64,000 nucleotides of DNA from an uncultured Enterobacteriaceae bacterium (lineage in GTDB: Bacteria > Myxococcota_A > UBA9042): assembly GCA_964438735.1 (NCBI GenBank), contig CAYTLW010000007.1, forward strand, positions 8,594 to 72,593. Direction: 5' to 3'. The notes under the pieces were generated by a model. That model ran no database searches, had not been told where the DNA came from, and saw only the letters and a program-made list of their open reading frames with translations. Shown one piece after another: positions 3,106 through 59,331 of the stretch. The first letter of the stretch is position 1. Each line of letters begins with the position of its first letter. A program made the translations under genes and the position numbers.

Positions 3106-3113
3106 TTTGTTTG

Positions 3114-3194: not shown

Positions 3195-3207
3195 TGGGTC
3201 TTGCACC

Positions 3208-4602: not shown

Positions 4603-4788
4603 TCCTCATCACTCGGGAGGCGCGAAAGCTACGGCAAGCCGGCCAACGCAGCAAGCAGGGAGGCGATTGTAGTCGACATCCTGGCTACGTATCTGCATAC
4701 TCCCGCGCCTCGACAGCCGGTCGGTTTGACGCCGACCCGCCAGTGCAGCCCGAACTGAACTTTGCCCGGGCCCCAACGAGGAGATCAG

Positions 4789-6114
<1,326 letters not shown>

Positions 6115-6199
6115 AACAAGAAGGTTCGGCGAGCGCACACGGGCCTGAATTCGGGCTGTCCGCCAGGGCAGGGGTGCTCGCCGACCAGGGAGCGCACCG

Positions 6200-36357: not shown

Positions 36358-39300
36358 TCAATGACCACGCACGTACATCGTCGTATTGGACCGACACGCA
36401 CAGCCGCATAACGCCCCTGGCTTGTCCTGGCAGACCGTGCCCTGGGCAGCGTTGGGGTTCTTGCCGTAGTAGGTCAGCGTCTTGTACTGCCCGCCGCCGC
36501 CGTTGGAGCAGCCCACCCCCCAATGGGGCGTCTCGCCGGAGCCCTTGCAGGTGTAGCTGCCGCCCTTGGAGCCGTTGAAATACGCGTACGAGCCCGTGAG
36601 CTGCTTGCCGCTGGACCAGCTCCACTTCAACGTGGTCTTGGGGGAGCGATACCAGCGGTTGCCATAGAGATAGAGGTACTCCTTGGTGGTATTGCCATGC
36701 AGTGACGACGCCACGTTCGGGTAGAGCTTGGTCCAGCCACCGCCGGCGACGCTCATCAAGCAGACGGCGCTGAAGGCGTCGCCGATGCCGCCGCCGTTGG
36801 GGTCGATCCAGTAGCTGCCGTTGCCCTTGGAGCTGCCGCTGTCGAGGATGTGCTTGCAGCTGAGCGCCGGGTTGGACTTGGTGCCCACCGTCTTGGGCAC
36901 GCACTTGCCGCTCTGGCACCACTTGGCGGCGCCGCAGCCCTTGCCGTTGGCGACGTTCTTGGTCGTGCAGCCCTGGCCTTTGTCGCAGCCGTTGAGCGTG
37001 CAGGGGTTGCCGTCATCGCATTTCTTGGCCGAACCCGGCTTGCAGCTGCCGCCGTTGCAGGCGTCGTTAAGGGTGCAGACGCTGCCGTCGCTGCATGGGG
37101 CGGCGTTGTTGGCGTTGATGCAGCCCTTGGACGCATCGCAGAAGTCGGTCGTGCACAGCTTGTTGTCGTTGCAGTTCTTGGCCGAGCCCGGTTTGCAGCT
37201 GCCACCGGTGCAGATGTCGTTGGTGGTGCAGGCGTTGCCGTCGCTGCAGGGCTTGGTATTGGCCTTGTGGGTACAGCCCGTAGCCGGCGCGCAGGCATCG
37301 TCGGTGCACAGCTTGCCGTCATCGCAATTCGGCGCGGCGCCCGGGGCGCATTTGCCGCCGGTACAGGTGTCCTTGAGGGTGCACTTGCTGTTGTCAGAGC
37401 AGGGCTTGGTATTGGCCGTGAACGTGCAGCCCTTGGCCTTGTCGCAGCCGTCGTCGGTGCAGAGTTCGCCGTCGCTGCAGGACTTCTTCTTGCCGGGGAT
37501 GCAGAAGCCGCCCAGGCAGCTGTCGGTCAGGGTGCAGACGTCGCCATCGCTGCACTTGGCTGAATTGGGAGCGTGCTGGCAGCCCTTGGTCTTGTCGCAG
37601 GAGTCGTCGGTGCAGACCTTGCCGTCATCGCAGACCAGCGGCGCGCCGGCCGCGCACGACTTGTCCTTGCAGGCGTCGGGTTTGGTGCAGGCGTTGCCGT
37701 CGTCGCATGGCGCCGTGTTGGCCACGTGCAGGCAGCCGTTCTTCCAGTGGCAGCCGTCGGTGGTGCAGTTGTTCTTGTCGTCGCAGACCTTGGGCCCGCC
37801 GGGCGTGCAAGCGCCGGCCTTGCAGATGTCCTTGTCGGAGCAGGTGTTGCCGTCGTTGCAGCCGGCGCTGTTGTGGGTGAAGACGCAGCCCTTGGCCTTG
37901 TCGCATGCGTCATCGGTGCACACGTTGCCGTCGGCGCAGGTCACCGGATTGCCGGGCGCGCAGGTGCCTGCTTTGCACCCATCGTTGGCGGTGCAGGCGT
38001 TGCCGTCGTCGCAGGGCAGGGCGTTGGCGGGGTGGGCGCAGCCGTTGAGGTGGTGGCAGGTGTCGTTGGTGCAAAGTTTGCCGTCGTCGCAGCTCTTCGG
38101 CTTGCCGGGCGCGCATTTGCCGGCCAGGCAGCCGTCGGACTCGGTGCAGACGCTGCCATCGCTGCACGGCGCGCCGGGTTTGGCGTGCACATGGCTGCAG
38201 CCGGTCTTGGCTTCGCATTCATCTACGGTGCAGACATTGCCGTCGTTGCAGACCAGCGCCTTGCCGGGCTGACATTTGCCAGCCGCGCAGCCGTCACCCA
38301 CGGTGCAGGCGCTGCCGTCGTCGCAGGCCGAGCTGTTGGGTGTGAAGGTGCAACCCTTGGCCGGATCGCATCCGTCGGTCGTGCACACCTGCCCATCGCT
38401 GCAGGTCACGGGTTTGGCGGCGCACTTGCCGCTGGCGCAGACGTCCTCCTTGGTGCAGGCGTTGCCGTCGTCGCAGGCGCCCGTGTTGTGCACATGGGTA
38501 CAGGCCGTCTTGGCGTCGCAGCCGTCGGTTGTACACGGGTTGCCGTCATCGCAGGACTGCTTGCCCGGCCCCTTGCATTCGGTAGCGGTGCAAGCGTCGG
38601 CCAGGGTGCAGGCGTCGCCGTCGTCGCACGCGACGCTGTTGGCCAGGTGGGTGCAGCCGGTCTTCTTGTCGCAGCTGTCGTCGGTGCAGAGGTTGTCGTC
38701 GTTGCAATCGAGGGCCGGTCCGCCCGTGCAGACACCTTTGTTGCAGATGTCCTTGGTGGTGCAGGCGTCGCCATCATCGCACGCCGGCCCGGTCTGCTCG
38801 TTGTGCACGCAGCCCTTGATCGCGTCACAGCCGTCGATCGTGCAGGTGTTGTTGTCGTCGCAGACCACCTTCGTGCCGATGCATTTGCCTTCGGTACACG
38901 CGTCGTCGGAGGTGCAGGCGTTGTTGTCATCGCAAGCGCCCGCCTGGGGCAGATGATTGCACTTGCCGGCGTTGCAGCTGTCCGCCGTGCAGACCATGTT
39001 GTCGTCGCAGACCCCCGGGTCGGCCTCGTCGGTGTTGCCGTCGCAGTCATCGTCCTGGGTGTTGCAGGTCTCGCTCACCGCAGCCGGCGCGTCGCAGGCG
39101 CCCAGGCCCTTGGCGTTGCAGGCGCGCTTGCCGGTACAGGTGCCGGCGCCATTGGTTGTGGAACAGCCGGTGACGAGTCCCAGCTCCTTGGCCCGGGCGC
39201 TGCACGGACAGGTCAGGTCGGCGCGTTGACATTGTTTGGCCTTGGCGCCACCCACGCTGACCACGTCGACGCACTGCCAGCCCTCCGGGCAGGTCACATC

Positions 39301-39846
39301 CGCGCCACAGCCGCCGCCACAGAAGGCGCCCAGGTTCTCGCCCTGCTCGCTGTAGGGCACGCAGAGGGACTTGCCGCCGCCGAGCGCGGCGCTGCAATCC
39401 GAGTCGCTCTGGCAGGGATCGCAGATGCGCGGAAAGCGCGGCACGCAGATGGACGTGGCATCGCCGGCCCCGGTGTCGACCAGCTTGCAGACGTAGTCCT
39501 CGGCGCAGTCGGTCACGCAGGTTTTGGCGCAGACCTTGCCGTCGAAGGTGTCGATGCAATAGCCCGAGTCGCACTCATCATTGCCCTTGCAGGGCTGGGC
39601 GGGCTGCTCGTCGGCGTCCGGCAGCGCGGTGCCCTGGTCGACCGGTTCGCCTGCGTCCTCATCGGCCGCATCGTTGATGACACTGTCGAAGTCCATGGTG
39701 ATGTCCGGACCCGCCGGTCCGGAGACCACGGAGTCATCGGCGGGATCCCCACAACCGGCCATGGTGCCGACGGTCATGCACAGCAGGGTGCAGAACAGAA
39801 GCATCGGGCGGGCGCCAACGGCCCGCCGGCGCGGAGTCTCGAGCAT
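36358..39846 (-). CDS. Cys-rich repeat lipoprotein (~21 Myxococcus-type cysteine-rich repeats) with C-terminal fibrinogen-related (FReD/COLFI-like) domain
   Basis: Signal peptide plus lipobox MLETPRRRAVGARPMLLFCTLLCMTVGTMAGC. Alternative ATG at 39867. G-rich Shine-Dalgarno before 39846. Repeats of CxDGNxCTxDxCxxxxGCxHxxN. C-terminus ...SCKHILDSGSSKGNGSYWIDPNGGGIGDAFSAVCLMSVAGGGWTKLY... has the hallmarks of the fibrinogen / fibrillar-collagen C-terminal fold. Confidence 0.75.
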   Translation of the reverse strand: MLETPRRRAVGARPMLLFCTLLCMTVGTMAGCGDPADDSVVSGPAGPDITMDFDSVINDAADEDAGEPVDQGTALPDADEQPAQPCKGNDECDSGYCIDTFDGKVCAKTCVTDCAEDYVCKLVDTGAGDATSICVPRFPRICDPCQSDSDCSAALGGGKSLCVPYSEQGENLGAFCGGGCGADVTCPEGWQCVDVVSVGGAKAKQCQRADLTCPCSARAKELGLVTGCSTTNGAGTCTGKRACNAKGLGACDAPAAVSETCNTQDDDCDGNTDEADPGVCDDNMVCTADSCNAGKCNHLPQAGACDDNNACTSDDACTEGKCIGTKVVCDDNNTCTIDGCDAIKGCVHNEQTGPACDDGDACTTKDICNKGVCTGGPALDCNDDNLCTDDSCDKKTGCTHLANSVACDDGDACTLADACTATECKGPGKQSCDDGNPCTTDGCDAKTACTHVHNTGACDDGNACTKEDVCASGKCAAKPVTCSDGQVCTTDGCDPAKGCTFTPNSSACDDGSACTVGDGCAAGKCQPGKALVCNDGNVCTVDECEAKTGCSHVHAKPGAPCSDGSVCTESDGCLAGKCAPGKPKSCDDGKLCTNDTCHHLNGCAHPANALPCDDGNACTANDGCKAGTCAPGNPVTCADGNVCTDDACDKAKGCVFTHNSAGCNDGNTCSDKDICKAGACTPGGPKVCDDKNNCTTDGCHWKNGCLHVANTAPCDDGNACTKPDACKDKSCAAGAPLVCDDGKVCTDDSCDKTKGCQHAPNSAKCSDGDVCTLTDSCLGGFCIPGKKKSCSDGELCTDDGCDKAKGCTFTANTKPCSDNSKCTLKDTCTGGKCAPGAAPNCDDGKLCTDDACAPATGCTHKANTKPCSDGNACTTNDICTGGSCKPGSAKNCNDNKLCTTDFCDASKGCINANNAAPCSDGSVCTLNDACNGGSCKPGSAKKCDDGNPCTLNGCDKGQGCTTKNVANGKGCGAAKWCQSGKCVPKTVGTKSNPALSCKHILDSGSSKGNGSYWIDPNGGGIGDAFSAVCLMSVAGGGWTKLYPNVASSLHGNTTKEYLYLYGNRWYRSPKTTLKWSWSSGKQLTGSYAYFNGSKGGSYTCKGSGETPHWGVGCSNGGGGQYKTLTYYGKNPNAAQGTVCQDKPGALCGCACRSNTTMYVRGH

Positions 39847-39896: not shown

Positions 39897-42659
39897 TCAA
39901 GGCGCCTTGGGCACATCTTTGGCGCAACGGACTCCCAGAGCCGGATCGGTGCTCTTCTTGGGGCTGCTCTGGCGGTTGCCGGCGCGCACCTCCGCCGCCG
40001 TGCTGACCAGGCTGCCACCACGAACCACGCGGCCATCCTTGGCGGGCGCGTGGGGATCCTTCTTGGGCGACTTGCTGTACCAGTCCGCCTGGTAGCCGTC
40101 GCTGACCCACTCGCTGACGTTGCCGCCCATGTCGCGCACGCCGTAGGGACTGATGTCCTTGGCCATGGTGCCGACGCTGCGCGTGGTGCCCAGGTCGCAG
40201 CCGCCCTTGTCGACGCCGAGCATGACCGTGAAGCTGCAGTTGGCCGCCGGCTTGGCCCAGGGCCAGGTCGGGGTCAGCTTGGCGCAGTCTTTGCCCCAGA
40301 TCTCGCAGCCGCCGCGGGCGGCCTTCTCCCACTCGGCTTCGGTCAGCAGGCGCTTGCCAAAGTGCTGGCAGACGGCCACCGCCGCGTCGTGGTCGATGCA
40401 GTTCATGGGGTGCTGAGCCTTGGTCTTGTCGCCCCAGTTGCACTTGGGCAGCGGGTCCTTGGGTTTGGCGCAGTTGCCGGCGTCCACGCATTGACCGTAT
40501 TGGTCGACGGTGATCTCGAAGCGATCGATGAAGAAGGCGCTCAACTGGACCTCGTGCTGGGGTTTCTCGTCGGGTTTGCAGGCGCCATCCAGGGCGGCGT
40601 TGCAGCCCATCTGTGTCGGCCCGTCGGGCACGTAGATCATGGCCGGCGCCAGGGCCAGGCACTGGCCGTCATGGCAGATCTTGGCCGTCTCGGCCCCCGC
40701 CGTGCAGACGCTGCCGTTGACCACCGAGCCGTGGCTGCACTTGCCCTTGGGACCACAGATGTCCACCGTGCACGGGTTCTTGTCATCGCAGGCGCTGTCA
40801 ACCGCGACCAGGCCGCATTTGCCAGTGCTCGGATTGCAGGTCGTCTTCTTGCAGCCCTGGGAGGCCTCGGTGCACGCGACGGCGGACGCGGGTTTGGTCT
40901 TGCACACCGGCGGGCTCGCGGCGGTGTCGCAGTAGGGCGTGCCGTTGCAGGCGTTGCCGTCGTCGATGCAGTCCGCGTCGGCTTTGCAGGCACAGAGATC
41001 GGTGCCGCCTTTGCAGCTGCCGGCCTTGCAGATGTCACCGACGGTGCAGGGCTTGCCGTCATCGCACTTGCTCAGGTCGGCGGACTTCTTCATGGCGCAC
41101 TTGCCGGTCTTCTTGTCGCAGGTGTTCTTCTTGCACGGGCCGTCATCCTTGCCGGTGCAGACGACAACGGTGGTCGGGTTGACCAGGCAGGTGGGCGGAT
41201 TCTGCAGCTTGTCGCAGTAGAGCGTGCCGTTGCACGCGTTGCCATCCTCCTTGCTCTTGCAGTCGTCGTTGGTCTCGCAGACACAGGTATTGGTGCCCGT
41301 CAGGCAGGAGCCGAAGCCGTCGCAGGTATCGTCCACGGTGCACGGGTTGTCGTCTGCGTTGCACTGGGAGAACTTGATGGCGAATTCCGGCTTGCAGACG
41401 CCCAGCGCCGGCGCGCAGGCCATGGTCATGCAGTCGGTGGAGCCGGCCTTGGAGCAGTGAATGATCGTGCCCGGGTGGACCTTGCAGGCGCCCGCCTTCT
41501 TGTCGCAGTAGAGCGCGCCATTGCATAGATCGCCGTCGTCGAATTGCTGGCAGTCCGCGTCCTGCTTGCAGCCGCAGAGATCGGTGCCCGATTTGCAGCT
41601 GCCGTCCTCGCAGACATCGCCCTTGGTGCACACCTGGCCGTCGTCGCAGGGGGTCAGGTCGGGCTTGGCTTCGGCGGTGCATTTGCCGGACTTCTTGTCG
41701 CACAGCACGGGGGCGCAAGGATCGGCGCCGGCGCCCGGGCAGGTGACCACCGTCGCCGGGTTGATCACGCACTTCGGCTTGCCGGCGCTCAGGTCGCAGT
41801 AGAGCGTGCCGTTGCAGGTGTCGCCATCCTCTTTGCCGGCGCAGTCCGCGTCCTTGACGCAGACGCAGGTATTGGCGCCACCGACGCAACTGCCCGCCTT
41901 GCAGTGATCGCTCGCAGTGCAACCATTGCCGTCATCACAGAGCTTGGGCGGTTGGGTGTCGGCGACCGCCTTGACGAGGCATTCGCCGGTGTCCGGCTTG
42001 CACTTGACCAGCTCGCAGGCGCCGGCGCTCAGGTGGCTGCAATCGACCACCGACGCCGGATTCGTCTTGCAGTTGTAGGGCACCTCGCTGGTGTCGCAAT
42101 AGGGCTGGCCGTTGCAGACGTTCTTGTCGTCCTTGCAGTCGGCGCTGACGTGGCAGGCGCAGATGTCCGACTTCGGGTCGCCGATGCATGTGCCCTTATC
42201 GTCGCAGTTGGCGCTCTTGGTGCAGGGGTCGCCATCATCGCACTTCGACTTGGCCGGCAGCGCTTTGGCCTTGCACTGGCCCGCGGTGCAGCTCCAGACC
42301 TGGCAGCTGTCGGGCGACTCGCCGCAGTCCTTGGCCACCTTGCAGCCGCCGGTGTCGACCGGTGTCGGCGTGTCCGCTTTGACGGCGTCGCCCTGCTCAC
42401 CGTCCACCTTGTCTGCTGTATCGGCGATGTCTGGCTGCGCGCCCGTGTCGCCGATTCCATCCGACATGCTGTCGGGGGGCGTGTCGGCGTCAGCGTCGTC
42501 GCCAGTGCCATCAACCACCTTGCCGCCGTCGTTGCCCGCGAAACCGCTCTCGTCGGGGACCATGTCCCAGCACGCCGGCAGCGCCAGCGTCGCCAGCAGC
42601 AGCCCGGCCCATCGGATCCCTGCACTGTGCGCGCATCGCGGTGTCTTCATGGCGTTCAT
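39897..42659 (-). CDS. Cys-rich repeat lipoprotein with C-terminal FGE-sulfatase (SUMF1/formylglycine-generating-enzyme-like) domain
   Basis: Signal peptide plus lipobox (MNAMKTPRCAHSAGIRWAGLLLATLALPAC). ~8 larger modules (CxCxxDADCAxxEDGDxCNGTLYCD...C.xNPxTVVxC) alternating with short CDDGxxCTxxDxC repeats. C-terminal domain with FGE motifs (MIYVPDGPTQMGC..., GKRLLTEAEWEKAARGG, GGNVSEWVSDGYQADWY, VVRGGS). Start ATG overlaps the stop of the upstream gene (TGATG). Confidence 0.75.
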   Translation of the reverse strand: MNAMKTPRCAHSAGIRWAGLLLATLALPACWDMVPDESGFAGNDGGKVVDGTGDDADADTPPDSMSDGIGDTGAQPDIADTADKVDGEQGDAVKADTPTPVDTGGCKVAKDCGESPDSCQVWSCTAGQCKAKALPAKSKCDDGDPCTKSANCDDKGTCIGDPKSDICACHVSADCKDDKNVCNGQPYCDTSEVPYNCKTNPASVVDCSHLSAGACELVKCKPDTGECLVKAVADTQPPKLCDDGNGCTASDHCKAGSCVGGANTCVCVKDADCAGKEDGDTCNGTLYCDLSAGKPKCVINPATVVTCPGAGADPCAPVLCDKKSGKCTAEAKPDLTPCDDGQVCTKGDVCEDGSCKSGTDLCGCKQDADCQQFDDGDLCNGALYCDKKAGACKVHPGTIIHCSKAGSTDCMTMACAPALGVCKPEFAIKFSQCNADDNPCTVDDTCDGFGSCLTGTNTCVCETNDDCKSKEDGNACNGTLYCDKLQNPPTCLVNPTTVVVCTGKDDGPCKKNTCDKKTGKCAMKKSADLSKCDDGKPCTVGDICKAGSCKGGTDLCACKADADCIDDGNACNGTPYCDTAASPPVCKTKPASAVACTEASQGCKKTTCNPSTGKCGLVAVDSACDDKNPCTVDICGPKGKCSHGSVVNGSVCTAGAETAKICHDGQCLALAPAMIYVPDGPTQMGCNAALDGACKPDEKPQHEVQLSAFFIDRFEITVDQYGQCVDAGNCAKPKDPLPKCNWGDKTKAQHPMNCIDHDAAVAVCQHFGKRLLTEAEWEKAARGGCEIWGKDCAKLTPTWPWAKPAANCSFTVMLGVDKGGCDLGTTRSVGTMAKDISPYGVRDMGGNVSEWVSDGYQADWYSKSPKKDPHAPAKDGRVVRGGSLVSTAAEVRAGNRQSSPKKSTDPALGVRCAKDVPKAP

Positions 42660-43519
42660 CAGAACCGCACCGCCCAGACCAGCCCGCGGCCTGTCGGCAC
42701 CACGGCGCTCGAGGTCGCCGGCTGTCCGCTGAGCCACCAGATGCCTGCGCCGGCCATGACGGCGCCGACGGTCATCAGGCTGACGCCGATGGCCATGCGC
42801 GTATTGGCCGACTCCTGGCGCGCCAGGGCGTCGTCGCGATCGATGCCGACCACCTTGCCTGCGCTGTCCTTGTTGTTGAGTTGCTCTTCGAGGGCATCCG
42901 CCTGATCGAGCGCGTCGAAGGTCAGCCAGCCGCCGGCAGCTGCCGCGACCACACCGGCCCCGACGCCGCCCCAGGCCAACAGGCGCGTGGTGCCTGCGGC
43001 CGCGCGCGCTCTGGCCGCCGCGTCCGCCTTCGCCTTTCGCTCCGCCGCCAGTTTCGCCGCTGCGGCTGCCGCCGCCTTCTGCGCCGCTTTTTGTTCCGCG
43101 GCGCGTTTGGCCGCCTGTTGCGCCGCATCGGCTGCCTTCTTGCGCTCCTCTTTGGCCTGCTGCCAGCGCTTGCTGGCCTTGGCGCGCAGTGCGTGGCTGG
43201 TCGGGGCGCGTCGCAGGAAGATCTCCCAGGCCTTCTCAGCCTCTTGCCAACGCTTGGCCTTGGACTCGCAGAGGGCGGCGCTGTAGAGGTACTCGACCGT
43301 GGCCGGATCGATGGTCGCCGCCTGCCGGTAGAGCTGGCTGCACAGCCGCCACTGCTTCGCCTTGGCCTTCGACGCGGCGACATAGGAGATGGCCGCCGCC
43401 TCCTCGGCCTTGCTGACCGCCTGGCCCCAGGCGGTCGAGCACAGCAAGATGGCGCCCAGCGCACACAGGCCGGCCAGGTACCGCAAGTGGGGTCCGGCTT
43501 TCGCTGACGGGGCGTGCAT
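42659..43519 (-). CDS. Membrane protein: signal peptide, TPR-like helices, Ala/Lys/Glu-rich coiled-coil, two C-terminal TM segments
   Basis: Real start ATG 43519 (MHAPSAKAGPHLRYLAGLCALGAILLCSTAWGQA), lying inside a longer GC-artefact ORF. ~70-aa AKAE-rich segment. TM helices LLAWGGVGAGVVAAAAGGWL and IGVSLMTVGAVMAGAGIWWL. Translationally coupled to the downstream FGE-domain gene. Confidence 0.5.
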   Translation of the reverse strand: MHAPSAKAGPHLRYLAGLCALGAILLCSTAWGQAVSKAEEAAAISYVAASKAKAKQWRLCSQLYRQAATIDPATVEYLYSAALCESKAKRWQEAEKAWEIFLRRAPTSHALRAKASKRWQQAKEERKKAADAAQQAAKRAAEQKAAQKAAAAAAAKLAAERKAKADAAARARAAAGTTRLLAWGGVGAGVVAAAAGGWLTFDALDQADALEEQLNNKDSAGKVVGIDRDDALARQESANTRMAIGVSLMTVGAVMAGAGIWWLSGQPATSSAVVPTGRGLVWAVRF

Positions 43520-43583: not shown

Positions 43584-46500
43584 CTACTTGCACACCCCGG
43601 CGCTGCAGGTCTTGCCGCCGCCGCAGGGGCTGTTGTCGGCCAGGTTGCCATGCTTGCAACCGGCAGCTGCGGTGCAGGTGTCCAGGGTACAGGGATTGGC
43701 GTCGTCGCAGCCCACCGAGGGCTTGTCTGCGCAGGCACCGGAGGCCGTACACTTGGTCGTGCCCCAGGCGTCGAGGCGCTGCAGCCAGCCAGCGGCCTTG
43801 TTGCCGCTGTCAGGCCGCTTGCCCACCAGGGCCAGGCCTTCCTTGAAGAGCGCGACACCGTGGGCCACGTCTGTTCCCGAGACACCAATAGTTGCGGCGC
43901 TGCGCACGTTGCCCTGCGCGTCGATGTGGGCGAGCAAGGCGTCCATCCCACCGCCCGGGCCGGGGTTCTGGTGGCCCACCGCGAACACGCCCAGGGGCGC
44001 TGCGGGAGCCAGGGCCAGCAGCAGGTTGTCGTTCGCGCCGGTGACCTTCGCCTGCCAGAGCAGGCTGCCGGAACCATTGATGCGCCAGACGCTGCCCACC
44101 TTCTTGTTGCCGCCGGCCACGTCGTGGAAGTAGCCCGCCGCGTACACGCCGTTGTCGCCATCGGAGAGGGCCGCCAGGCAGCCGTCATTCTGCGCGCCCC
44201 CGAAGGTCTTCAGCCATGACTGAGTGCCGCTGCTGGTCACGTTGAAGACCAGGCAATCGGTGCCTCCGGCACCCTGCGTCGTATCGCCGACGACGATCCC
44301 GTTGGTGCCGTGGGTCACCACGCCGCGCGCGGCCTGGTCACCGGTGCCACCGAACGTCTTGTCGAAATCCGAATTGCCGATGTCGGAGATCCGCAGCACG
44401 TACGCGTCGTAGCCGCCGCCGCCCTTGCTGTTGGTGCGACCGACCAGCAGGTGTTTGTCGGGGGCACGCCAGGCGGCCGCGAAGGCCTCCTCATCCTTGT
44501 CCCCCTCCTTGCTCTTGTCGAAGGCGAGCGTGCCATCGGCGTTGACCTTCGCCCACCACATGGCCTTGCCTTTGGCGGCGTCCAGGTTCTTGCTGCCGAA
44601 GACCAGGTGGCCAGCCTTCGCGGCGGCGATGACACCCCAGGCCACGTCGTCCTTGGCGCCGCCCCAGGTCTTCTCCTGGGTGATGGTGCCTGCGGAGTTG
44701 ACGCGCAGCAGCCAGGCATCCGCGCCGCCGGCTCCCTTGGACGTGGTGCTGCCCACCGCCACCAGCCCGCCGCCGTCGCGGGTGACGCCATGCAGCACAT
44801 CATCGCCAGAGACGCCGTAGAGTTTGGACAGCAGCTTGTCCTGCTTGCTCGCTTGGCAGACGCCGTTGGCGAAGCAGGTGCCAGGCAACGAACAGGCGTC
44901 GCCATCGGCGCAGTCGCCGGTCGCGTCGGCGTGGCTGCACACGCCCTTGTCGCAACCATCCAGCAGGCAATCCTTGCCGTCGTCGCAATCGGACGCCGAC
45001 TTGTCGGCACAACCCGATGACACGTCGCACGTGATATGGCCCCAGGCGTCCAGGCGGGCGACATGGATCTCCTCGTTGCTGTTGCCCGGCTGCGACTTGC
45101 TGGTGGTGACCACCGCGGGCGCGCCGTCGTGGGCCAGGCTGAGATCCCAGCCCCAATCCTCGCTGGCGCCGCCGACGTACTGCGTCCAGCGCGTGGTGCC
45201 GTGCAGATCGGTCGACACCACGTAGCCGTCCTCCTTGCCCAGATCGCCGTCCTTGTACGTGCCGACGGCGAAGACATTGTCGCCGACCCCCAACCGGACA
45301 CCGCGCAGGTTGTCATCGCCGTTGCCGCCGACGGTCTTGCTCCAGCGAACGCCGCCGGCCGCGTCGACCCGCAGCAGCCAGCCATCGATGCCGCCAGCGC
45401 CGAACGACTTGGTCGCCCCTGCCAGGGCGAAGCCGCCGTCGGGGAAGCGCGCCAGGCCGTAGCCCCACTCCTGGTCGCTGCCGCCGTAGTAGCGTCGCCA
45501 GCGTTCGCGGCCATCCCGATCGGTGCGCAGCAGGATCATGTCGCGGCTCTTGGAGATGCCGGCCTCGCTCTCGCCGATGATGGCGAAGCCGTCCGGCAGG
45601 GCGACCACATCATGGGCCCGGTCGACCTTGCCGCTGTAGCCCCAGGTCCGGCTGAAGAGCTTGTTGCCGCTGTTGCTGAAGGCGACCGTCAGGCCGTCCG
45701 TGCTGCCGGTGGCGATGTAGCCGACCGCGAAGAGGGCGCCGTCATCTCGCAACGCCACCGCGTGACCCCGGCTGGTGATCTCGCCGGTGACATGACCCTT
45801 GCTCCAGATCTTGCCGCCGCTGGCGTTGACTCGCATGACCATCAGCACCGGATCCTCGTCACCCAGGCTCTCGCTGAAGCCGGTGATGGCGTAGCCGCCA
45901 TCGCTCAACTGGACCAGCCCGAAGCCGTGCTCCTGGTCCTCGCCATTGGACAGGTCCACCGCCCACTTCTGCGTGCCGGCGCGATCGAGGTGGATCAGTC
46001 GCGCATTGCCATCCTCGCCGGAGCCGCCGCCGACCAGGGTGAATCCGTCGGCCGTCGTGACGATGTCGCGTCCCCAGCGCCGACTGGAGTGCGACGAGAA
46101 GGTCGAGAAGAGGCGCGGCTTGTTCAGGGTGGCGCACTTGCCCGAGCTGCAGACGCCGCCTGCCGAGCACACATTGCCGTCCTCGCACGCGCCGGCCAGG
46201 GCCGTGTATTTGCAGCCGCCGTTGGCCTTGTCGCAGCTGTCTGCGGTGCAGCTGTTGCCATCGCTGCAGATCTTCGGCTTGCCGGATGCGCAGGCGCCGG
46301 CGCTGCAGGCGTCTCCCACCGTACAGGCGTCGCCGTCGTCGCATGAGGCCGTGTTGTTGGCGAACTGGCATCCCTTGACCACGTCGCAGCTGTCGGTCGT
46401 GCAAGCGTTCTTGTCATCGCAGGTCTTCGGTGAGTTGCCCACGCACTTGCCGCCGTTGCAGGCGTCGATCTGGGTGCACACGTTGCCGTCATCACACGCT

Positions 46501-49500
46501 TTGGTGTGGTTGGTGAAGACGCAGCCCTTGGCCTTGTCGCAGACGTCGTCGGTGCAGGTATTGCCGTCGTCGCAGGTCACCTTCTTGCCGCCGCAGGTGC
46601 CCCCGCTGCACGCATCCGAGGCGGTGCAGGCGTCGCCATCGTCGCAGGTGGCGGTGTTGTTGACCTGCTTGCAGCCGGTGGCCTTGTCGCAGCTGTCGGT
46701 GGTGCAGACATTGCCGTCGTTGCAATCGGGTGCCTTGCCGCCCACACAGTTGCCGCCGCTGCAGGTATCGGCTGTGGTGCACGCGTCGGCGTCGTCGCAG
46801 GCGGCCGTGTTGTTGACGTGCACGCAGCCTTTGGCCTTGTCACAGCTGTCGGTGGTGCAGACCTTGCCGTCGTTACAGCTGGGCGCGCCACTGCCGACGC
46901 AGGTGCCGCCCTTGCAGCCGTCGGTGGTGGTGCACCCGTCACCGTCGTCGCAGGCCGCGGTGTTGTTGACGTGCTGGCAGCCCTTGGCCGGATCGCAGGA
47001 GTCGGTGGTGCAGACCTTGCCATCGCCGCAGTTCGGCGCCGGGCCGCCCTTGCAGGCGCCGCCGGAGCAGGCGTCGTTGAGCGTGCACTTGCTGCCGTCA
47101 TCACAACTGGCGCTGTTGTTGCTGTACACGCAGCCGGCCGCCTTGCTGCACGAGTCCGTCGTGCAGCCGTTGCCGTCGTCGCAGTTGGGTGGCTTGCTGC
47201 CGGAGCACGACCCGCCGGCGCAGACATCCACGGTGGTGCACTTGCTGCCGTCGTCGCAGGGCGCGGTGTTGTTGGCGGTCACGCAGCCCTTGGCTTTGTC
47301 GCAACTATCGGTGGTGCAGACCTTGCCGTCATCACAGACCGGTGCCTGACCGCCCACGCACTTGCCAACGCTGCAGGTGTCCTTGGTCGTACAGGCGTTG
47401 CCGTCGTTGCAGGGCGAGACATTCACGGTGTTGACGCAACCGATGGCCGCCTTGCAGCTGTCGGTCGTACACGGGTTGCCATCGCTGCAATCAGCTGCCG
47501 AACCAGGATCGCAGGCGCCGCCCTTGCAGAGGTCGCCGACCGTGCACTTGCTGCCGTCTGAACAGGGGTTGCCCGTGTTCTTCGCGCTCAACTTGCACGC
47601 CCCCGTCTTGGCGATGCACACATTGACCACGCAGGTCGTGTTTTGGGACGAATCGCAGGTGACGATGGTCTTGGGATCGATCTTGCAGGCATAGGGCGCC
47701 TTGGACGTGTCGCAGATCAGGGTGCCGTTGCAGGGGTTGCCGTCTTCCTTGGCGGCGCAATCGCTGTTCTTGGTGCAGGCGCACTGGTTGGCGCCCGACT
47801 GACAGCTGCCGCCACTGCATTTGTCGCCCGACGTGCACACGTTGTTGTCGTCGCAGGTGGCCGAATTGGCCGCGTGGGTGCAGCCCTTGGCTTTGTCGCA
47901 ACCATCGTTGGTGCAGGGGTTGCCGTCGTCGCAGGAGGGGGCTCCGCTGCCGACGCAGCCGCCCGATTTGCAGGTATCGGTGAGCGTGCACTTGCTGCCG
48001 TCATCGCACGGCTTGGTATTGGCCCCGTGAGTGCAGCCCTTGACGGCGTCGCAGGCGTCGTCGGTACAGGCGTTGTTGTCGTCGCAGTTGATGGCCACGC
48101 CCTTGCAGACGCCGCCGCCGCAGGCGTCGGACTTGGTGCAGACCGTGCCGTCGTCGCACGGTTTGCCGTTGTGGCCGTGGCTGCAGGCGCCGGTCTTGAC
48201 CCCGCAGCTGTCGTCCGTGCAGGGGTTGTTGTCGTCGCATGACTTGGCCTTGCCGGCCACGCATTTGCTGGCGGCGCAGCTGTCGCCGATGGTGCACTTG
48301 TTGCCATCGTTGCAGGGCTGTTTGTTGGCCACGTGTGAACAGCCGCTCTTGATATCGCAGCCATCGTTGGTGCAGGGGTTTCCATCGTCGCACTTGACGG
48401 CCTCGCCGGGCACGCAACTACCCGCCGCGCACGCGTCCCCCGAGGTGCAGGTGTTGCCATCATCGCAGGGCGCGGTGGTCGCGACATTGCTGCAACCGAC
48501 CAGCGGCTTGCATTGATCGGTGGTGCAGGCGTTCTTGTCGTTACAGCCGAGCGCCGCGCCTGGCGCGCATTTGCCGCCCTTGCAGCCGTCGTTGGTCGTG
48601 CACTTGTCGCCGTCGTCGCATGCGCCACCGCTGGCGGTGAAGGTGCAGCCCTTGGCTTTGTCGCAGCTGTCCGCGGTGCAGACCTGGCCGTCATTGCACA
48701 ACAAGGACTTCCCAGGTTTGCAGAGGCCCAGATAACAGGTGTCGGCGGCGGTGCACACGCTGCCGTCGGCATCGCATGATTTGCCCTCGTTGCGCGGCAG
48801 CAGCTTGCACTTGCCGGTCTTGGCGTCGCAGGTATTGACCCGGCAGGTGCTGTTCTTGGCCGCCGAGCAGGTCACGATGGTCTTGAGGTCGACCACGCAG
48901 ACGAAGGGCGCCTTGGCTTTGTCGCAGCGCAAGGTGCCGTTGCAGACGTTGCCATCCTCCTTGGCCTTGCAGTCGGCGTCTTTTTCGCATCCACAGATGT
49001 TTCCGCCGGCCTGGCAGGCGCCCGCCTTGCAGGTGTCGCCCGCCGTGCAGGGGTTGCCATCATCGCACTTGGCGGTCGATGGGCTGTGCACGCAGCCCTT
49101 GAGCTTGTCGCAGGCGTCGGTGGTGCACAGCTTGCCGTCATCGCAGGAAGTGGGTTTGCCGGGCACGCATTTGCCGCCGGAGCAGGTATCGCCCACGGTG
49201 CAGGCGCTGCCGTCGCTGCAGGAGGCGCTGGCAGGGCTCTGCAGGCAGCCCTTGTCGGTGTCGCAGGTGTGCTTGGTGCACGGGTTGCCATCCTCGCATT
49301 TGACCGATGTGCCGACGCAGCCGCCCGCCTTGCAGGCATCGGACGATGTACAGGCGTTGCCGTCGTCGCAGCTGCCCGCCTGCGCCTTCGTGGAGCACTT
49401 ACCGCTGTTCTTGAGGCAGGTGTCGATCGTGCACGGGTTGCCGTCGTCGCAGACTTTGGCCTTGCCCGCCACACACTTGCCGCCGGTGCAGCCGTCCCCG

Positions 49501-52007
49501 ACCGTGCAGGACAGGCCATCGCTGCAGGGCGCCTGGTTGGCCTCGTGGGCGCAGCCAGCGCCGGACTTGCAGCCGTCATTGGTACACGGGTTGCCGTCGT
49601 CACAGGCCTTGCCCTTGCCGCCGACGCAGATGCCTTCGTTGCAGGAGTCGCCAGTGGTGCATGGGTCGCCGTCGTCGCACTTCTTGCCGGCCAGGATGGG
49701 CTGGGTGGCGAGCCAGCAAGAGCCGTTGGCCGGGTTGCAGACCAGGTCGGCGCAAGGTTCGTCATCTTTCGGACATGCAGCGATGGTGGCCTGGTCGATC
49801 ACGCAGACGTGGGGGAACTTGCCGGTCTCACAGCGCAGCGTGCCGTTGCACAGGTCGCCGTCCTCGAAGATGGCGCAGTCGGCGTCCTGCTTGCAGGCGC
49901 ACACGGCCGCGCCGGGATTGCACTTGCCCGACAGGCAGACATCGCCCGCCGTGCACGGGTCGCCGTCGTTGCATAGCAGGTTGTCCTCTTTGGGCTGCAA
50001 CGCGCACGTGCCCTTGGCCGGGTCGCACAGGTTGGCCTGGCAGGCGTCGCTGTCACCGCCGGGGCAGATGACCGGCGTGGTGGGGTTGATGCGGCAGACG
50101 AAGGGCTGCGCGCTGGTATCGCAGTACAACGTGCCGTTGCAGAGGTCGCCATCTTCGCTGTCGGCGCAGTCGCTATCCTTCGTGCAGGCGCAGAGATTGG
50201 TGCCGGTGACGCACTCGCCCAGATCGCATGCGTCATCGGCGGTGCAGGCGTTGTCGTCGGCGTTGCAGGGCCAGCCCTGGTGCACGGGCTCCATTTTGCA
50301 GATGCCGGCCAGGGGCGCGCAGCGATTCTCCATGCAGGTGCTGTCGCCGCCGTCGGGACAGGTCACGACCGTCTTGGGGTTCACCTTGCAGATCTTGGGG
50401 CTGGCCAGCAGGTCGCAGTACAACGTGCCATTGCAGAGGTCGCCATCCTCGAAGGGCGCGCAGTCTGCGTTCGCCTCGCACATGCAGGTATTGGTGCCCA
50501 CCTCGCACAGCCCCTTGTTGCAGCTGTCGCCGACGGTGCACGGGTTGCCGTCGGCGTCGCACGGGCCGTTATTGTTGATGGGCTGCATGGCGCAGGCCCC
50601 GGTCTTCGGCGTACAGGTATTGCGCAGGCAGGCGGTGTCCTGGCCCGAGGCGCAGGTGATCTTGGTGGTCGGATTGACCTTGCATCGAAAGGGCTGCTCG
50701 CTGGTGTCGCAGTACAGCACGCCGTTGCAGAAGTTGCCGTCTTCCTTGGCCGCGCAGTCGGCTGTTGTCTTGCACTCGCAGGTATTGGTGGCCCCTTCGC
50801 AGCTGCCCTTTTTGCAGACCTCGCCCTGGGTGCAGGGGTTGTCGTCATCGCAGGGCAGGTTCTCGGGCATGGGCGCCGCGTAACACTTGCCGGTCTTGCT
50901 TGCACAGGCCGTGGCCGTGCAGTTGCCATCGCCGAGCTTCGGGCAACTGACCACAGTCGCCGGGTTGACCTGGCACGCCGGCTTGGCCAGCGCCAGGTTG
51001 CAGAACAGGGTGCCGCTGCAGAGATCGCCATCTTCCTTGGCGGCGCAGTCGGCGTCGGCGGCACATGGGCAGATGTTGGTGCCGGGTACGCACTGCTCTT
51101 CGACGCAGCTGTCGCCGGAGGTACACGCGCTGCCGTCCTCGCAAGCGGCACCGTCGGCCAGGGGCGTGAGCTCGCACGCGCCCGAAGCCGGATCGCACGC
51201 ATTCTGCAGGCAAGGCGTCTGCCCGGCGACGTCGCATTGCACCACCGTAGCCGGGTTGACCTTGCAACCCCAGGGCGCGCTGGAGGTGTCGCAGTACAGG
51301 GTGCCGTTGCAGGCGTTGCCGTCCTCGAAGGGCGCGCAATCGGCGCTCACCTGGCAGACGCAGATCGTACCACCTGCGACGCATTTGCCCGCCGCGCACG
51401 TCGTGTCGACGGTACAAGGCTGCCCATCGTCGCACAGGGCCCCATCGGTGATCGGGGAAGCGACGCACTTGCCCGTGGCCGACTCGCAGGCGAAGGCCTG
51501 GCAGGTGTCGTCGTCGGGGCACTGGATGACCGTCGCGGGATCCACCTCGCAACGGCCGCTGCCGCCATCCGGCACGCAGCGCAACGTGCCATTGCAGGCA
51601 TCGCCATCATCCAGGGCGGTGCAATCCGCCTTGAACTTGCACGGGCACGCATCCTTGCCGCCGCCGCACACGCCCTGCTTGCAGGTCTCGCCCAGGGTGC
51701 AGACGTCGCCGTCGTCGCAGGCGCTGCCATCGGACGCCAGCACGGGTACGCAGACCTGCTCGATGCAGAGCACGTCGGTGGCGCAGGGTCCGACGGCGCA
51801 GTCCGTGGCGGTGCTGCAGCTCGGCACGGAGACCACCGCGCCCGCGTCAGGGTCGCCGGCGATATCGCCGCTGGTGGCCAGATCGCCACCGGTGTCTGCG
51901 TTGATGATGCTGTCGATGCCCGAAGACGGGTCGGTGATGGGATCGTCGCCGCAGGCCGCCGACGAGCCGACCAGCACACCCAGCAGGACGAGGTGGCGCA
52001 ACTTCAT
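43584..52007 (-). CDS. Giant (~2807 aa) Cys-rich repeat lipoprotein: ~10 large Cys modules, ~40 Myxococcus cysteine-rich repeats, two beta-propeller domains each capped by Cys repeats
   Basis: Lipoprotein signal peptide MKLRHLVLLGVLVGSSAACGDD. ATG 52007 overlaps the stop of the upstream giant gene (ATGA). Continuous 8.4-kb ORF. Propeller blades of ~50 aa (G..D.G.AV....DGG.V.VG.T.S.G.GG.DAWLLR...G...W.KT.GG). Confidence 0.85.
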   Translation of the reverse strand: MKLRHLVLLGVLVGSSAACGDDPITDPSSGIDSIINADTGGDLATSGDIAGDPDAGAVVSVPSCSTATDCAVGPCATDVLCIEQVCVPVLASDGSACDDGDVCTLGETCKQGVCGGGKDACPCKFKADCTALDDGDACNGTLRCVPDGGSGRCEVDPATVIQCPDDDTCQAFACESATGKCVASPITDGALCDDGQPCTVDTTCAAGKCVAGGTICVCQVSADCAPFEDGNACNGTLYCDTSSAPWGCKVNPATVVQCDVAGQTPCLQNACDPASGACELTPLADGAACEDGSACTSGDSCVEEQCVPGTNICPCAADADCAAKEDGDLCSGTLFCNLALAKPACQVNPATVVSCPKLGDGNCTATACASKTGKCYAAPMPENLPCDDDNPCTQGEVCKKGSCEGATNTCECKTTADCAAKEDGNFCNGVLYCDTSEQPFRCKVNPTTKITCASGQDTACLRNTCTPKTGACAMQPINNNGPCDADGNPCTVGDSCNKGLCEVGTNTCMCEANADCAPFEDGDLCNGTLYCDLLASPKICKVNPKTVVTCPDGGDSTCMENRCAPLAGICKMEPVHQGWPCNADDNACTADDACDLGECVTGTNLCACTKDSDCADSEDGDLCNGTLYCDTSAQPFVCRINPTTPVICPGGDSDACQANLCDPAKGTCALQPKEDNLLCNDGDPCTAGDVCLSGKCNPGAAVCACKQDADCAIFEDGDLCNGTLRCETGKFPHVCVIDQATIAACPKDDEPCADLVCNPANGSCWLATQPILAGKKCDDGDPCTTGDSCNEGICVGGKGKACDDGNPCTNDGCKSGAGCAHEANQAPCSDGLSCTVGDGCTGGKCVAGKAKVCDDGNPCTIDTCLKNSGKCSTKAQAGSCDDGNACTSSDACKAGGCVGTSVKCEDGNPCTKHTCDTDKGCLQSPASASCSDGSACTVGDTCSGGKCVPGKPTSCDDGKLCTTDACDKLKGCVHSPSTAKCDDGNPCTAGDTCKAGACQAGGNICGCEKDADCKAKEDGNVCNGTLRCDKAKAPFVCVVDLKTIVTCSAAKNSTCRVNTCDAKTGKCKLLPRNEGKSCDADGSVCTAADTCYLGLCKPGKSLLCNDGQVCTADSCDKAKGCTFTASGGACDDGDKCTTNDGCKGGKCAPGAALGCNDKNACTTDQCKPLVGCSNVATTAPCDDGNTCTSGDACAAGSCVPGEAVKCDDGNPCTNDGCDIKSGCSHVANKQPCNDGNKCTIGDSCAASKCVAGKAKSCDDNNPCTDDSCGVKTGACSHGHNGKPCDDGTVCTKSDACGGGVCKGVAINCDDNNACTDDACDAVKGCTHGANTKPCDDGSKCTLTDTCKSGGCVGSGAPSCDDGNPCTNDGCDKAKGCTHAANSATCDDNNVCTSGDKCSGGSCQSGANQCACTKNSDCAAKEDGNPCNGTLICDTSKAPYACKIDPKTIVTCDSSQNTTCVVNVCIAKTGACKLSAKNTGNPCSDGSKCTVGDLCKGGACDPGSAADCSDGNPCTTDSCKAAIGCVNTVNVSPCNDGNACTTKDTCSVGKCVGGQAPVCDDGKVCTTDSCDKAKGCVTANNTAPCDDGSKCTTVDVCAGGSCSGSKPPNCDDGNGCTTDSCSKAAGCVYSNNSASCDDGSKCTLNDACSGGACKGGPAPNCGDGKVCTTDSCDPAKGCQHVNNTAACDDGDGCTTTDGCKGGTCVGSGAPSCNDGKVCTTDSCDKAKGCVHVNNTAACDDADACTTADTCSGGNCVGGKAPDCNDGNVCTTDSCDKATGCKQVNNTATCDDGDACTASDACSGGTCGGKKVTCDDGNTCTDDVCDKAKGCVFTNHTKACDDGNVCTQIDACNGGKCVGNSPKTCDDKNACTTDSCDVVKGCQFANNTASCDDGDACTVGDACSAGACASGKPKICSDGNSCTADSCDKANGGCKYTALAGACEDGNVCSAGGVCSSGKCATLNKPRLFSTFSSHSSRRWGRDIVTTADGFTLVGGGSGEDGNARLIHLDRAGTQKWAVDLSNGEDQEHGFGLVQLSDGGYAITGFSESLGDEDPVLMVMRVNASGGKIWSKGHVTGEITSRGHAVALRDDGALFAVGYIATGSTDGLTVAFSNSGNKLFSRTWGYSGKVDRAHDVVALPDGFAIIGESEAGISKSRDMILLRTDRDGRERWRRYYGGSDQEWGYGLARFPDGGFALAGATKSFGAGGIDGWLLRVDAAGGVRWSKTVGGNGDDNLRGVRLGVGDNVFAVGTYKDGDLGKEDGYVVSTDLHGTTRWTQYVGGASEDWGWDLSLAHDGAPAVVTTSKSQPGNSNEEIHVARLDAWGHITCDVSSGCADKSASDCDDGKDCLLDGCDKGVCSHADATGDCADGDACSLPGTCFANGVCQASKQDKLLSKLYGVSGDDVLHGVTRDGGGLVAVGSTTSKGAGGADAWLLRVNSAGTITQEKTWGGAKDDVAWGVIAAAKAGHLVFGSKNLDAAKGKAMWWAKVNADGTLAFDKSKEGDKDEEAFAAAWRAPDKHLLVGRTNSKGGGGYDAYVLRISDIGNSDFDKTFGGTGDQAARGVVTHGTNGIVVGDTTQGAGGTDCLVFNVTSSGTQSWLKTFGGAQNDGCLAALSDGDNGVYAAGYFHDVAGGNKKVGSVWRINGSGSLLWQAKVTGANDNLLLALAPAAPLGVFAVGHQNPGPGGGMDALLAHIDAQGNVRSAATIGVSGTDVAHGVALFKEGLALVGKRPDSGNKAAGWLQRLDAWGTTKCTASGACADKPSVGCDDANPCTLDTCTAAAGCKHGNLADNSPCGGGKTCSAGVCK

Positions 52008-59197: not shown

Positions 59198-59331
59198 CAG
59201 CCCATAGCCCCAACACGCCAGAGTCGGTCCGATCAACCTACTCTCCGCCCGAACCGGCAGCAATTTTTCGCGCGCGAGCGCTCGACCGCTGTTCACTGGA
59301 CCAGGGGCGCACCCTGAGCGATTCTCCCGGC

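Follow-up and report, generated by a model that had tools for sequence, protein, structure and literature searches.

A 64,000-nt stretch of contig CAYTLW010000007.1 (GenBank assembly GCA_964438735.1, positions 8,594 to 72,593 of the forward strand; hereafter the window, whose own numbering is used throughout), deposited as an uncultured Enterobacteriaceae bacterium and placed by GTDB within Myxococcota_A, carries an operon of five co-directional genes that runs on the minus strand from ~59182 to 36358. In order of transcription these encode a lipoprotein of ~2392 aa, a lipoprotein of 2807 aa, a 286-aa membrane protein (the partner), the 920-aa lipoprotein that is the subject of this analysis and ends in a formylglycine-generating enzyme (FGE)-sulfatase domain, and a lipoprotein of 1162 aa. 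The successive junctions are a 4-nt overlap, a 64-nt gap, a 1-nt overlap and a 50-nt gap, and a terminator and promoter scan from 36 to 44.5 kb returned counts no different from those of shuffled sequence, giving no evidence for internal terminators. The 920-aa gene has a GC3 of 0.84, similar to that of its neighbors, and was also called independently on the source contig (ENA ERZ23498639, scaffold_185, 138 kb). The features of this gene and of the partner gene are as follows.

39897..42659, minus strand: lipoprotein gene, 920 aa, comprising signal peptide, acidic linker, Cys-repeat stalk and FGE-fold head (open reading frame and translation)
42570..42659, minus strand: signal peptide and lipobox, aa 1-30, LPAC30 (lipobox Cys at the equivalent place in homologues)
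42540..42572, minus strand: N-terminal motif C30-WDM-VP-DESG-F40, of the form C-x3-[VI]P-x4-F, starting at the predicted lipidated Cys
40680..42344, minus strand: Cys-rich stalk, aa 106-660 (repeat alignment)
39918..40649, minus strand: FGE-sulfatase (C-type-lectin-like) domain, aa 671-914 (Pfam, AlphaFold2 (AF2), Foldseek)
39984..40022, minus strand: site of the two copper-binding catalytic Cys of FGE, aa ~880-892, RGGSLVSTAAEVR (both missing, with a 3-residue deletion)
42657..42661, minus strand: TGATG stop/start overlap of partner and lipoprotein genes (partner TGA and lipoprotein ATG have base 42659 in common)
42659..43519, minus strand: partner gene, 286 aa, with signal peptide, two tetratricopeptide repeat (TPR) motifs, Ala/Lys coiled coil, transmembrane hairpin and C-terminal strand ...VPTGRGLVWAVRF
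43202..43408, minus strand: partner TPR pair, aa 38-106 (profile match to consensus TPR proteins, per-domain E about 1e-6)
42731..42976, minus strand: partner hydrophobic hairpin, aa ~182-263 (hydropathy scan and alignments)

The signal peptide of the 920-aa protein ends in ...LLLATLALPAC30, as expected of a bacterial lipoprotein apart from an atypical Pro at position -2, and a lipobox Cys occupies the equivalent position in 17 of the 19 full-length homologues checked. It is followed by a conserved Asp at +2, which stands at +3 in some homologues. An acidic linker rich in Asp, Gly and Thr leads from the signal peptide to the Cys-rich region, in which a partial unit precedes five full repeats of ~97 aa with 14 Cys each (aa 167-652; window 40704-42161); the protein has 96 Cys in all. 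The second half of every unit is Dicty_CTDC-like, and 20 such stalk units are found in the window (5 in the 920-aa protein, 8 in the 2807-aa protein and 7 in the ~2392-aa protein). An AF2 model of the repeat built from these 20 units was poor (pLDDT 62.7, with residues 44-97 mostly below 50), and a Foldseek comparison of that model with the PDB gave no match below E=1. Full-length homologues with 40-59% identity occur in many metagenome-assembled genomes (MAGs) of uncultured Myxococcota/'Deltaproteobacteria', where they are annotated solely as 'formylglycine-generating enzyme family' or 'SUMF1/EgtB/PvdO nonheme iron enzyme'. Elsewhere the stalk is joined to other heads (DUF1566/Lcl, NHL, RCC1, MopE, SBBP).

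The head belongs to the FGE fold both by sequence (Pfam PF03781, E=1.2e-40, 140.2 bits against a gathering cut-off of 23.3) and by predicted structure (AF2 model of aa 661-920, pLDDT 95.4, pTM 0.93), and its best PDB matches in Foldseek are true FGEs (TM 0.75-0.79), with PvdO at TM 0.76. The original prediction, made from the DNA letters alone, of an FGE domain on a Cys-repeat lipoprotein is borne out by these matches together with LPAC30 and the 14-Cys repeats. Its suggestion that the domain might carry out copper-dependent thiol oxidation failed by the very test that it had proposed, a comparison of catalytic residues with those of authentic FGEs. The catalytic Cys pair of FGE (human C336/C341; SYLCHDSYC in S. 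coelicolor) is replaced in the window protein by RGGSLV---STAAEVR, and in the phmmer alignment with the S. coelicolor and T. curvata enzymes the window reads ...RVVRGGSLV---STAAEVRAGNRQSS..., with a loop three residues shorter. When fragments of these two FGEs were aligned with 53 Cys-stalk and 107 small stand-alone homologues (160 relatives), no Cys was found at either catalytic column in any of the 53, in any of the 107 or in the window protein. The generic fold core is kept in the window domain and in 94 small homologues (RLPTEAEWEKAARG, PWG, GNVxEW, RGG, and the GFRC Cys with its partner Cys), and RLPTEAEWE, GNVxEW, RGG and GFRC are nearly invariant in the same alignment. With the fold-core motifs retained and the catalytic Cys pair lost, the domain falls into the non-catalytic branch of PF03781. 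Because both Cu(I)-ligand Cys are absent, the copper thiol-oxidase reading falls, and of the two roles originally put forward it is ligand binding through the C-type-lectin-like FGE fold that survives, with added support from the gene context described below. The head is very probably a non-catalytic binding module, neither an FGE nor a copper oxidase.

The nearest relatives of the head alone are small proteins, 234-445 aa long, that are exported and come from a range of phyla. PF03781 is the sole Pfam domain in 117 of the 120 nearest relatives listed and a kinase domain is present in none of them, so that the premise that such domains are usually fused to kinases does not hold for this subfamily. 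A side observation concerns a four-Cys insert (GGC-x6-C-x15-C-x12-C, residues ~784-822; window 40100-40310, minus strand), which replaces the region that lines the groove of true FGEs and is a clade-specific feature conserved in the homologues from two comparison loci (L004 and L029; L numbers denote such loci throughout). It probably forms two extra disulfides that shape a binding surface.

Several more specific assignments were tried and rejected. A local sulfatase partner was dismissed, since the window contains neither the motif nor the enzyme: as originally reported for the neighboring proteins, the [CS]-[TSAC]-P-[SA]-R motif is absent from all 27 predicted window proteins, and the extended sulfatase signature is absent from all six frames of the 64 kb. 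A sulfatase gene lies ~8 kb off on the opposite strand in L002 and L003 (the same cassette), an arrangement judged coincidental. Membership of the EgtB/OvsA/SenA group was rejected on NCBIfam scores of 44.4 bits against 360 (EgtB) and 44.9 against 420 (SenA), with the match confined to the C-terminal FGE part and Cys repeats standing where those proteins have an N-terminal DinB-like domain with its His triad. The type IX secretion system (T9SS) proteins PorK/GldK and GldJ were likewise set aside (GldK, 65.1 bits against 350; GldJ, 16.1 against 458), and there are no T9SS genes among the annotated window genes. The variable protein of a diversity-generating retroelement (DGR; TvpA type) was rejected as well: there is no template repeat, blastn of the FGE-domain DNA against the 64-kb window gave chance matches of at most 38 nt, and no reverse transcriptase is found among the annotated window genes.

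The partner is translationally coupled to the lipoprotein by the shared base 42659, exactly as had been read from the sequence, and its description as a TPR/coiled-coil membrane protein is confirmed by the TPR profile match, the Ala/Lys coiled coil and two hydrophobic helices. These helices are Gly/Ala-rich and flank a conserved, charged loop of 40 residues. No Pfam or NCBIfam family spans the whole protein, and Pfam TPR_16 matches 27 of 65 family members; an exhaustive HMMER search recovered 384 family representatives at E<=1e-3 and 118 at E<=1e-10. Of the C-termini listed for 150 representatives, 140 carry an aromatic residue in at least one of the two final positions and 86 end in 'RF'. Two side observations can be made on this protein. 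Its C-terminus (window 42662-42730, minus strand) forms a ...[VL]xPxxxGxxLxV strand before the aromatic end and resembles the beta-signal of outer-membrane proteins, which is at odds with the inner-membrane, helical-hairpin appearance of the rest. In L009 (1429-2322) an in-frame stop interrupts the partner gene beyond its TPR region (...VEEVRKA*NDDA...), which points to either a pseudogene or an assembly error; tail-bearing kinases (see below) lie on both sides of the gene.

The gene neighborhood of the partner family provides comparative evidence from about 15 distinct loci, every fetchable locus having been examined. A Ser/Thr kinase gene lies directly upstream of the partner gene, usually overlapping its start, in nine loci (L002, L007, L009, L014, L017, L022, L024, L029, L031), and a class III cyclase gene does so in five (L011, L012, L019, L021, L026). 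One or the other is therefore present in 14 of 15 informative loci, the window being the exception. Downstream of the partner, the window, L002, L007 and L029 encode a Cys-stalk lipoprotein with an FGE head; L014 encodes a Cys-rich lipoprotein whose C-terminal part is like that of the 2807-aa protein of the window; and L011, L012, L017 and L026 encode a Peripla_BP_6/ANF_receptor-type lipoprotein, that is, a periplasmic binding protein (PBP), with 33-39% mutual identity. This PBP-type lipoprotein follows the partner behind a kinase (L017) or behind a cyclase (L011, L012, L026), which indicates that output enzymes and exported proteins are interchangeable around a constant partner. The 1-nt overlap between partner and lipoprotein genes recurs in L002, L007 and L026, the two genes abut in L029, and they overlap by 13 nt in L014. 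In L022 and L024 a Cys-rich protein gene precedes the kinase gene instead of following that of the partner.

Some of these loci merit separate mention. The L026 cassette (1598-4921) consists of a guanylate-cyclase-type enzyme with one transmembrane segment and the tail described below, the partner, and a Peripla_BP_6/ANF_receptor lipoprotein, joined by 17-nt and 1-nt overlaps, and appears to divide what makes up a eukaryotic receptor guanylyl cyclase among three bacterial proteins. In L002 a 1420-aa TIR-like/AAA_16/nSTAND1 NTPase gene (2593-6855) lies directly upstream of the kinase-partner-FGE cassette and is a candidate defense or signaling gene. Cassettes with Myxococcota-like Cys stalks, kinases or cyclases, and partners also occur in MAGs titled 'uncultured Enterobacteriaceae bacterium' (L010 and L013, CAZLMW01; L011, CAYHHL01), titles that look mislabelled.

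In the window itself, a kinase of this kind is encoded next to the operon, divergently from its start and about 150 bp away.

59350..61194, plus strand: single-pass Ser/Thr kinase (Pfam Pkinase, E=1e-38; probable GTG start at 59350 or 59332)
~59404-60198, plus strand: kinase domain
~60727-60783, plus strand: single transmembrane segment
61162-61191, plus strand: PRLKPMVFDE, end of a Pro/Lys-rich tail

The HRD and DFG motifs of this kinase are intact, and it is 40-42% identical over its full length to the L002 and L007 kinases, which have the same architecture. The FGE domain had originally been described as a stand-alone module. This is correct insofar as it is a separate polypeptide, but not in the sense of being unconnected to kinases: because an orthologous Ser/Thr kinase flanks the operon, the kinase link appears to be kept in trans rather than lost.

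Each kinase or cyclase examined in full begins with its catalytic domain, followed by one transmembrane segment and a predicted periplasmic segment, and none has a recognisable sensor domain. The periplasmic segment ends in a basic, Pro-rich stretch and a common terminus, [KR][VI][KQ][PR]xhh[DE][DE] (h, hydrophobic), which is found in 13 of the 14 tails compared and, in addition, in those of L029 and L031. Kinase tails end in PRLKPMVFDE (window), ILKPKIFDD, KIKRGLFED, KVKPALMNDD, KVQPAIMD, RIPAAILEE, TVKPKLVDD, VLKPKLFDG and KLKPRLVDD, and cyclase tails in TKIKRSVVVE and RKVKPRVVLD. This ending is lacking in two L005 kinases with no adjoining partner gene. As the window kinase keeps its tail without overlapping any gene, the tail is under a constraint of its own. 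The partner gene of L009 and that of L022 are each flanked by a further tail-bearing kinase gene in convergent orientation, which indicates that co-orientation is not required.

The exported proteins have a short motif of their own. C-x3-[VI]P-x4-F, counted from the predicted lipidated Cys, is present in seven of the eight lipoproteins encoded after a partner (that of L014 is the exception), in both FGE-headed (CWDMVPDESGF in the window, CYDLVPDAKEF, CLDVVPAKTSF, CVDVVPKADEF) and PBP-type versions (CASVVPADEAF, CDSVVPVSPDF, CIVEVPDAEKF). It recurs in 22 of 120 Cys-stalk homologues, all 22 of them FGE-headed (a simple regular expression missed the FGE domain of two, for both of which PF03781 is listed), and gave 0 matches in 189,640 background residues outside N-termini. 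The motif is not found in the FGE lipoproteins of the partner-less loci L004 and L005 (CRDVVGSYTF and CDSITGSYEF), nor in the other three Cys-rich lipoproteins of the window operon. The 920-aa lipoprotein thus combines two marks of the module proposed below, coupling to the partner through TGATG and the N-terminal motif.

With moderate confidence, these sequence data suggest that the 920-aa protein is the ligand-binding head in the sensor slot of a three-part transmembrane signaling module. The first part would be an exported lipoprotein sensor bearing the N-terminal C-x3-[VI]P-x4-F peptide; the second, the 286-aa protein acting as an inner-membrane adaptor, with its TPR pair and coiled coil in the periplasm, its hairpin loop in the cytoplasm and a conserved C-terminal strand; and the third, a single-pass output enzyme without ectodomain, in this case the kinase at 59350-61194, whose periplasmic tail ends in ...RLKPMVFDE-COOH. 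An extracytoplasmic ligand bound by the head would signal to the adaptor and, through it, to the kinase, and the TPR pair could bind the ...hh[DE][DE]-COOH tail of the enzyme by analogy with EEVD-binding TPR clamps. We infer this topology (TPR pair, coiled coil and enzyme tail periplasmic, hairpin loop cytoplasmic), as well as all contacts, the direction of signaling and the ligand. A split receptor is the most economical account for three reasons: the adaptor is constant, whereas the output enzymes on one side of it and the exported proteins on the other can be exchanged; among the exported proteins, the class of the periplasmic binding proteins is a bona fide ligand-binding module; and the association is tracked by three short motifs, in the tail of the enzyme, at the N-terminus of the lipoprotein and at the C-terminus of the adaptor.

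Precedents exist for the individual elements of such a receptor. Signaling that depends on an accessory lipoprotein or binding protein is known from RcsF-IgaA-RcsCD, NlpE-CpxA, LuxP-LuxQ, TorT-TorS and the ANF-receptor guanylyl cyclases. The proposed module resembles these in having an exported sensor, a membrane intermediary and a cytoplasmic output, and in L026 the sensor slot is filled by a Peripla_BP_6/ANF_receptor protein beside a guanylate-cyclase-type enzyme. It differs in having no sequence kinship to RcsF, IgaA or NlpE, and in that its outputs are Hanks-type kinases and class III cyclases rather than histidine kinases. Similarly, TPR carboxylate clamps (Hop, PP5), which bind ...EEVD peptides, offer a parallel for the putative adaptor-tail contact: the partner profile weakly matches the TPR regions of PP5 and Hop/STIP1 (E 6e-4 to 8e-4), and the module enzymes end in two hydrophobic and two acidic residues at the free carboxylate. 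In contrast to these clamps, the partner has two TPR motifs only and would work in the periplasm, so that the likeness is one of analogy, not membership; furthermore, where the family consensus has the Arg of an 'AARC' motif, the window partner has Leu.

As regards the head, the aerobic FGEs (SUMF1; S. coelicolor 2Q17 and 6MUJ; T. curvata 5NXL and 6S07, with 6MUJ and 6S07 being copper-bound structures) are its closest structural counterparts (Foldseek TM 0.75-0.79, E about 1e-19; phmmer E about 3e-17). The window head shares with them GNVxEW, RGG, the R...R pair and the C...GFRC disulfide pair, and GNVxEW is a motif that overlaps a Ca2+ site in FGE. Unlike them, it lacks the Cu(I) Cys, has a shorter loop and ends a 660-residue lipoprotein stalk, with no sulfatase substrate in the window. 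FGE folds without the Cys pair are also known in pFGE/SUMF2 (1Y4J), PvdO (5HHA), Tsi3, TvpA (2Y3C) and PorK/GldK (9MZU), which are exported or lipoproteins and act by binding where a role is known. The window differs from these in lacking a type VI secretion system (T6SS), T9SS, pyoverdine or DGR context, and neither fusion to a Cys-repeat stalk nor coupling to a TPR adaptor and kinase was found described for any of them in the literature searched. A parallel to the module as a whole is provided by bacterial Ser/Thr kinases with a C-terminal FGE-sulfatase ectodomain, such as the 'Proteo1' family, which likewise combine a kinase, a membrane span and an extracytoplasmic FGE fold (bioRxiv 10.1101/2025.01.12.632604). 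As such kinase-FGE-sulfatase fusions are a recorded architecture of bacterial Ser/Thr kinases (bioRxiv 10.1101/2025.01.12.632604), the parts of the putative split receptor do occur fused elsewhere. The window differs in having three polypeptides and a kinase with a short tail, and the function of the fused ectodomains is itself uncharacterised.

Several observations weigh against the split-receptor model. The window kinase is encoded outside the operon, on the plus strand, at a distance of about 16 kb from the partner gene, which is preceded by two giant lipoprotein genes where other loci have the enzyme gene. The sample of loci is small, and two of them (L002 and L007) are paralogous cassettes of a single MAG. 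The partner is absent from two of the six FGE-lipoprotein loci with known context (L004 and L005), and no lipoprotein gene follows the partner gene in L009, L019, L021, L022 and L031, which implies that the third component is not obligatory. Moreover, the model leaves the aromatic C-terminal strand of the partner without explanation, and PvdO, ToxD and CalU17, whose FGE folds also lack the Cys pair, are enzymes or enzyme helpers. Beyond sequence and synteny, everything in the model is what we infer.

The alternative that survives best, although we consider it rather unlikely, is a structural or adhesive role, in which the four Cys-rich lipoproteins would form an extracellular or periplasmic matrix or serve as adhesins, each with a different head: FGE-fold, COLFI-like or, in the two giants, a Cys-poor C-terminal region without an assigned fold. 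The FGE head would then be lectin-like, recognizing prey, a substrate or partner proteins. As to the other components, a membrane tether or assembly factor would be the role of the 286-aa protein, and the kinase would only regulate expression or be unrelated. The spread of the 20 stalk units over the window, giants included, is consistent with such a matrix, and the joining of the stalk to NHL, RCC1, DUF1566/Lcl, MopE and SBBP heads elsewhere is what would be seen in a modular adhesin family. PorK/GldK and the DGR variable protein TvpA moreover place FGE folds in purely structural or binding roles, and in the window the partner gene comes after a giant lipoprotein gene and not after a kinase gene. 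However, this account does not explain why the partner family adjoins a kinase or cyclase in 14 of 15 loci and why those enzymes have a common tail, nor why a PBP with the same N-terminal motif takes the same slot, when neither giant nor the 1162-aa protein has that motif.

It is improbable that the head is an enzyme of non-FGE chemistry that acts on a small molecule or peptide, as do PvdO (pyoverdine), ToxD (toxoflavin) and CalU17 (calicheamicin). Among PDB entries, CalU17, ToxD and PvdO match the head in sequence and fold about as well as human FGE does, and the conserved four-Cys insert (GGC-x6-C...C...C) lies at the site of the FGE groove. Yet there are no biosynthetic genes nearby, the residues conserved between the window domain and the 94 small homologues are those of the fold core alone, the DinB iron domain that EgtB/OvsA-type chemistry requires is absent, and a lipoprotein on a 550-residue disulfide stalk would be an unusual setting for a metabolic enzyme. 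Very improbable is a Tsi3-like immunity protein that binds a periplasm-acting effector: inert FGE folds can indeed act by protein-protein binding in the periplasm (bioRxiv 10.1101/2021.05.21.445229), but no T6SS or effector genes are present among the window genes scanned, and a stalked architecture of 920 aa in a kinase/adaptor context is unlike the small Tsi3-like proteins. Finally, a copper-dependent FGE-type oxidase that matures a distant sulfatase or makes the hundreds of disulfides of the locus deserves almost no credence: the FGE fold is present and the operon codes for 849 Cys, but the Cu(I)-ligand Cys are missing, with a 3-residue deletion, in the window and in 160 of 160 relatives, and the window holds no sulfatase and no CxPxR motif.

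The other three lipoprotein genes of the operon, which with the 920-aa gene account for the 849 Cys, are the following.

52004..59182, minus strand: ~2392-aa lipoprotein, first gene of the operon, with 7 stalk repeats (its end overlaps the next start by 4 nt)
43584..52007, minus strand: 2807-aa lipoprotein, with 8 stalk repeats, 19 Dicty_CTDC repeats and a Cys-poor, repeat-containing C-terminal region without an assigned fold
36358..39846, minus strand: 1162-aa lipoprotein, final gene of the operon, with 13 Dicty_CTDC repeats and a COLFI-like C-terminal domain

For the first of these (window 59101-59296, minus strand), the public call starts at ATG 59101 (2365 aa, 'MASCDEP') and drops nearly the whole signal peptide, and a start at ATG 59182 restores a normal lipoprotein signal, MTRSPF...LLAMASC, in a protein of about 2392 aa. 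The C-terminal ~230 aa of the 1162-aa lipoprotein (36361-37050) match Pfam COLFI (E=4e-10, 39.8 bits against a gathering cut-off of 26.2) and PDB 5K31, collagen alpha-1(I) (E=1e-4), that is, a fibrillar collagen C-propeptide domain of eukaryote type in a bacterial lipoprotein. Convergent with the operon, a gene at 34023-36323 (plus strand) encodes a 766-aa exported protein with a proprotein-convertase P-domain (E=6e-8) and a Cys-containing C-terminal end, ...GYACCY. Beyond it, a gene at 31904-33871 (minus strand) encodes a 655-aa exported protein with two Somatomedin_B domains (E=2e-16) and a C-terminal region that matches no Pfam family; a Somatomedin_B protein is also encoded after the FGE lipoprotein in L007 (12771-13280), an association that may exceed chance. 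Just past the Cys-rich cluster, a histidine kinase and a sigma-54 response regulator form a pair (28926-31872, plus strand) that could regulate the cluster.

While the domain family, inert FGE folds and signaling that depends on accessory lipoproteins are already known, four elements appear to be undescribed: the adaptor family, the class of kinases and cyclases that carry the tail, the N-terminal motif of the lipoproteins and the presence of an FGE-fold/Cys-stalk protein in a sensor slot. The literature searched yielded no account of these elements or of an arrangement of the three genes, which is no proof of absence. FGE-sulfatase domains that lack the catalytic Cys abound in bacteria, among them myxobacteria, cyanobacteria and Nitrospira. 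Labels such as 'formylglycine-generating enzyme' or 'nonheme iron enzyme' are routinely but wrongly given to them, and they have essentially no assigned function. That an FGE-fold domain and a classical periplasmic binding protein take the same genetic slot in this locus and its relatives yields a testable sensor hypothesis, and three short linear motifs amenable to mutation are now defined (at the end of the enzyme tail, at the start of the mature lipoprotein and at the C-terminus of the adaptor). On a wider scale, and as a tentative proposal, Myxococcota may possess a modular three-gene receptor system in which tail-docked kinases or cyclases without ectodomains are served by a TPR/transmembrane-hairpin adaptor and by interchangeable lipoprotein sensors, with PBP or FGE heads, that have a common N-terminal docking peptide. 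If true, this would provide the first functional assignment, that of a sensor domain, for a large inert branch of FGE-sulfatase domains that is also found fused to kinases. The adaptor family, for its part, may account for the way in which extracytoplasmic signals reach bacterial Ser/Thr kinases and cyclases that have no ectodomain.

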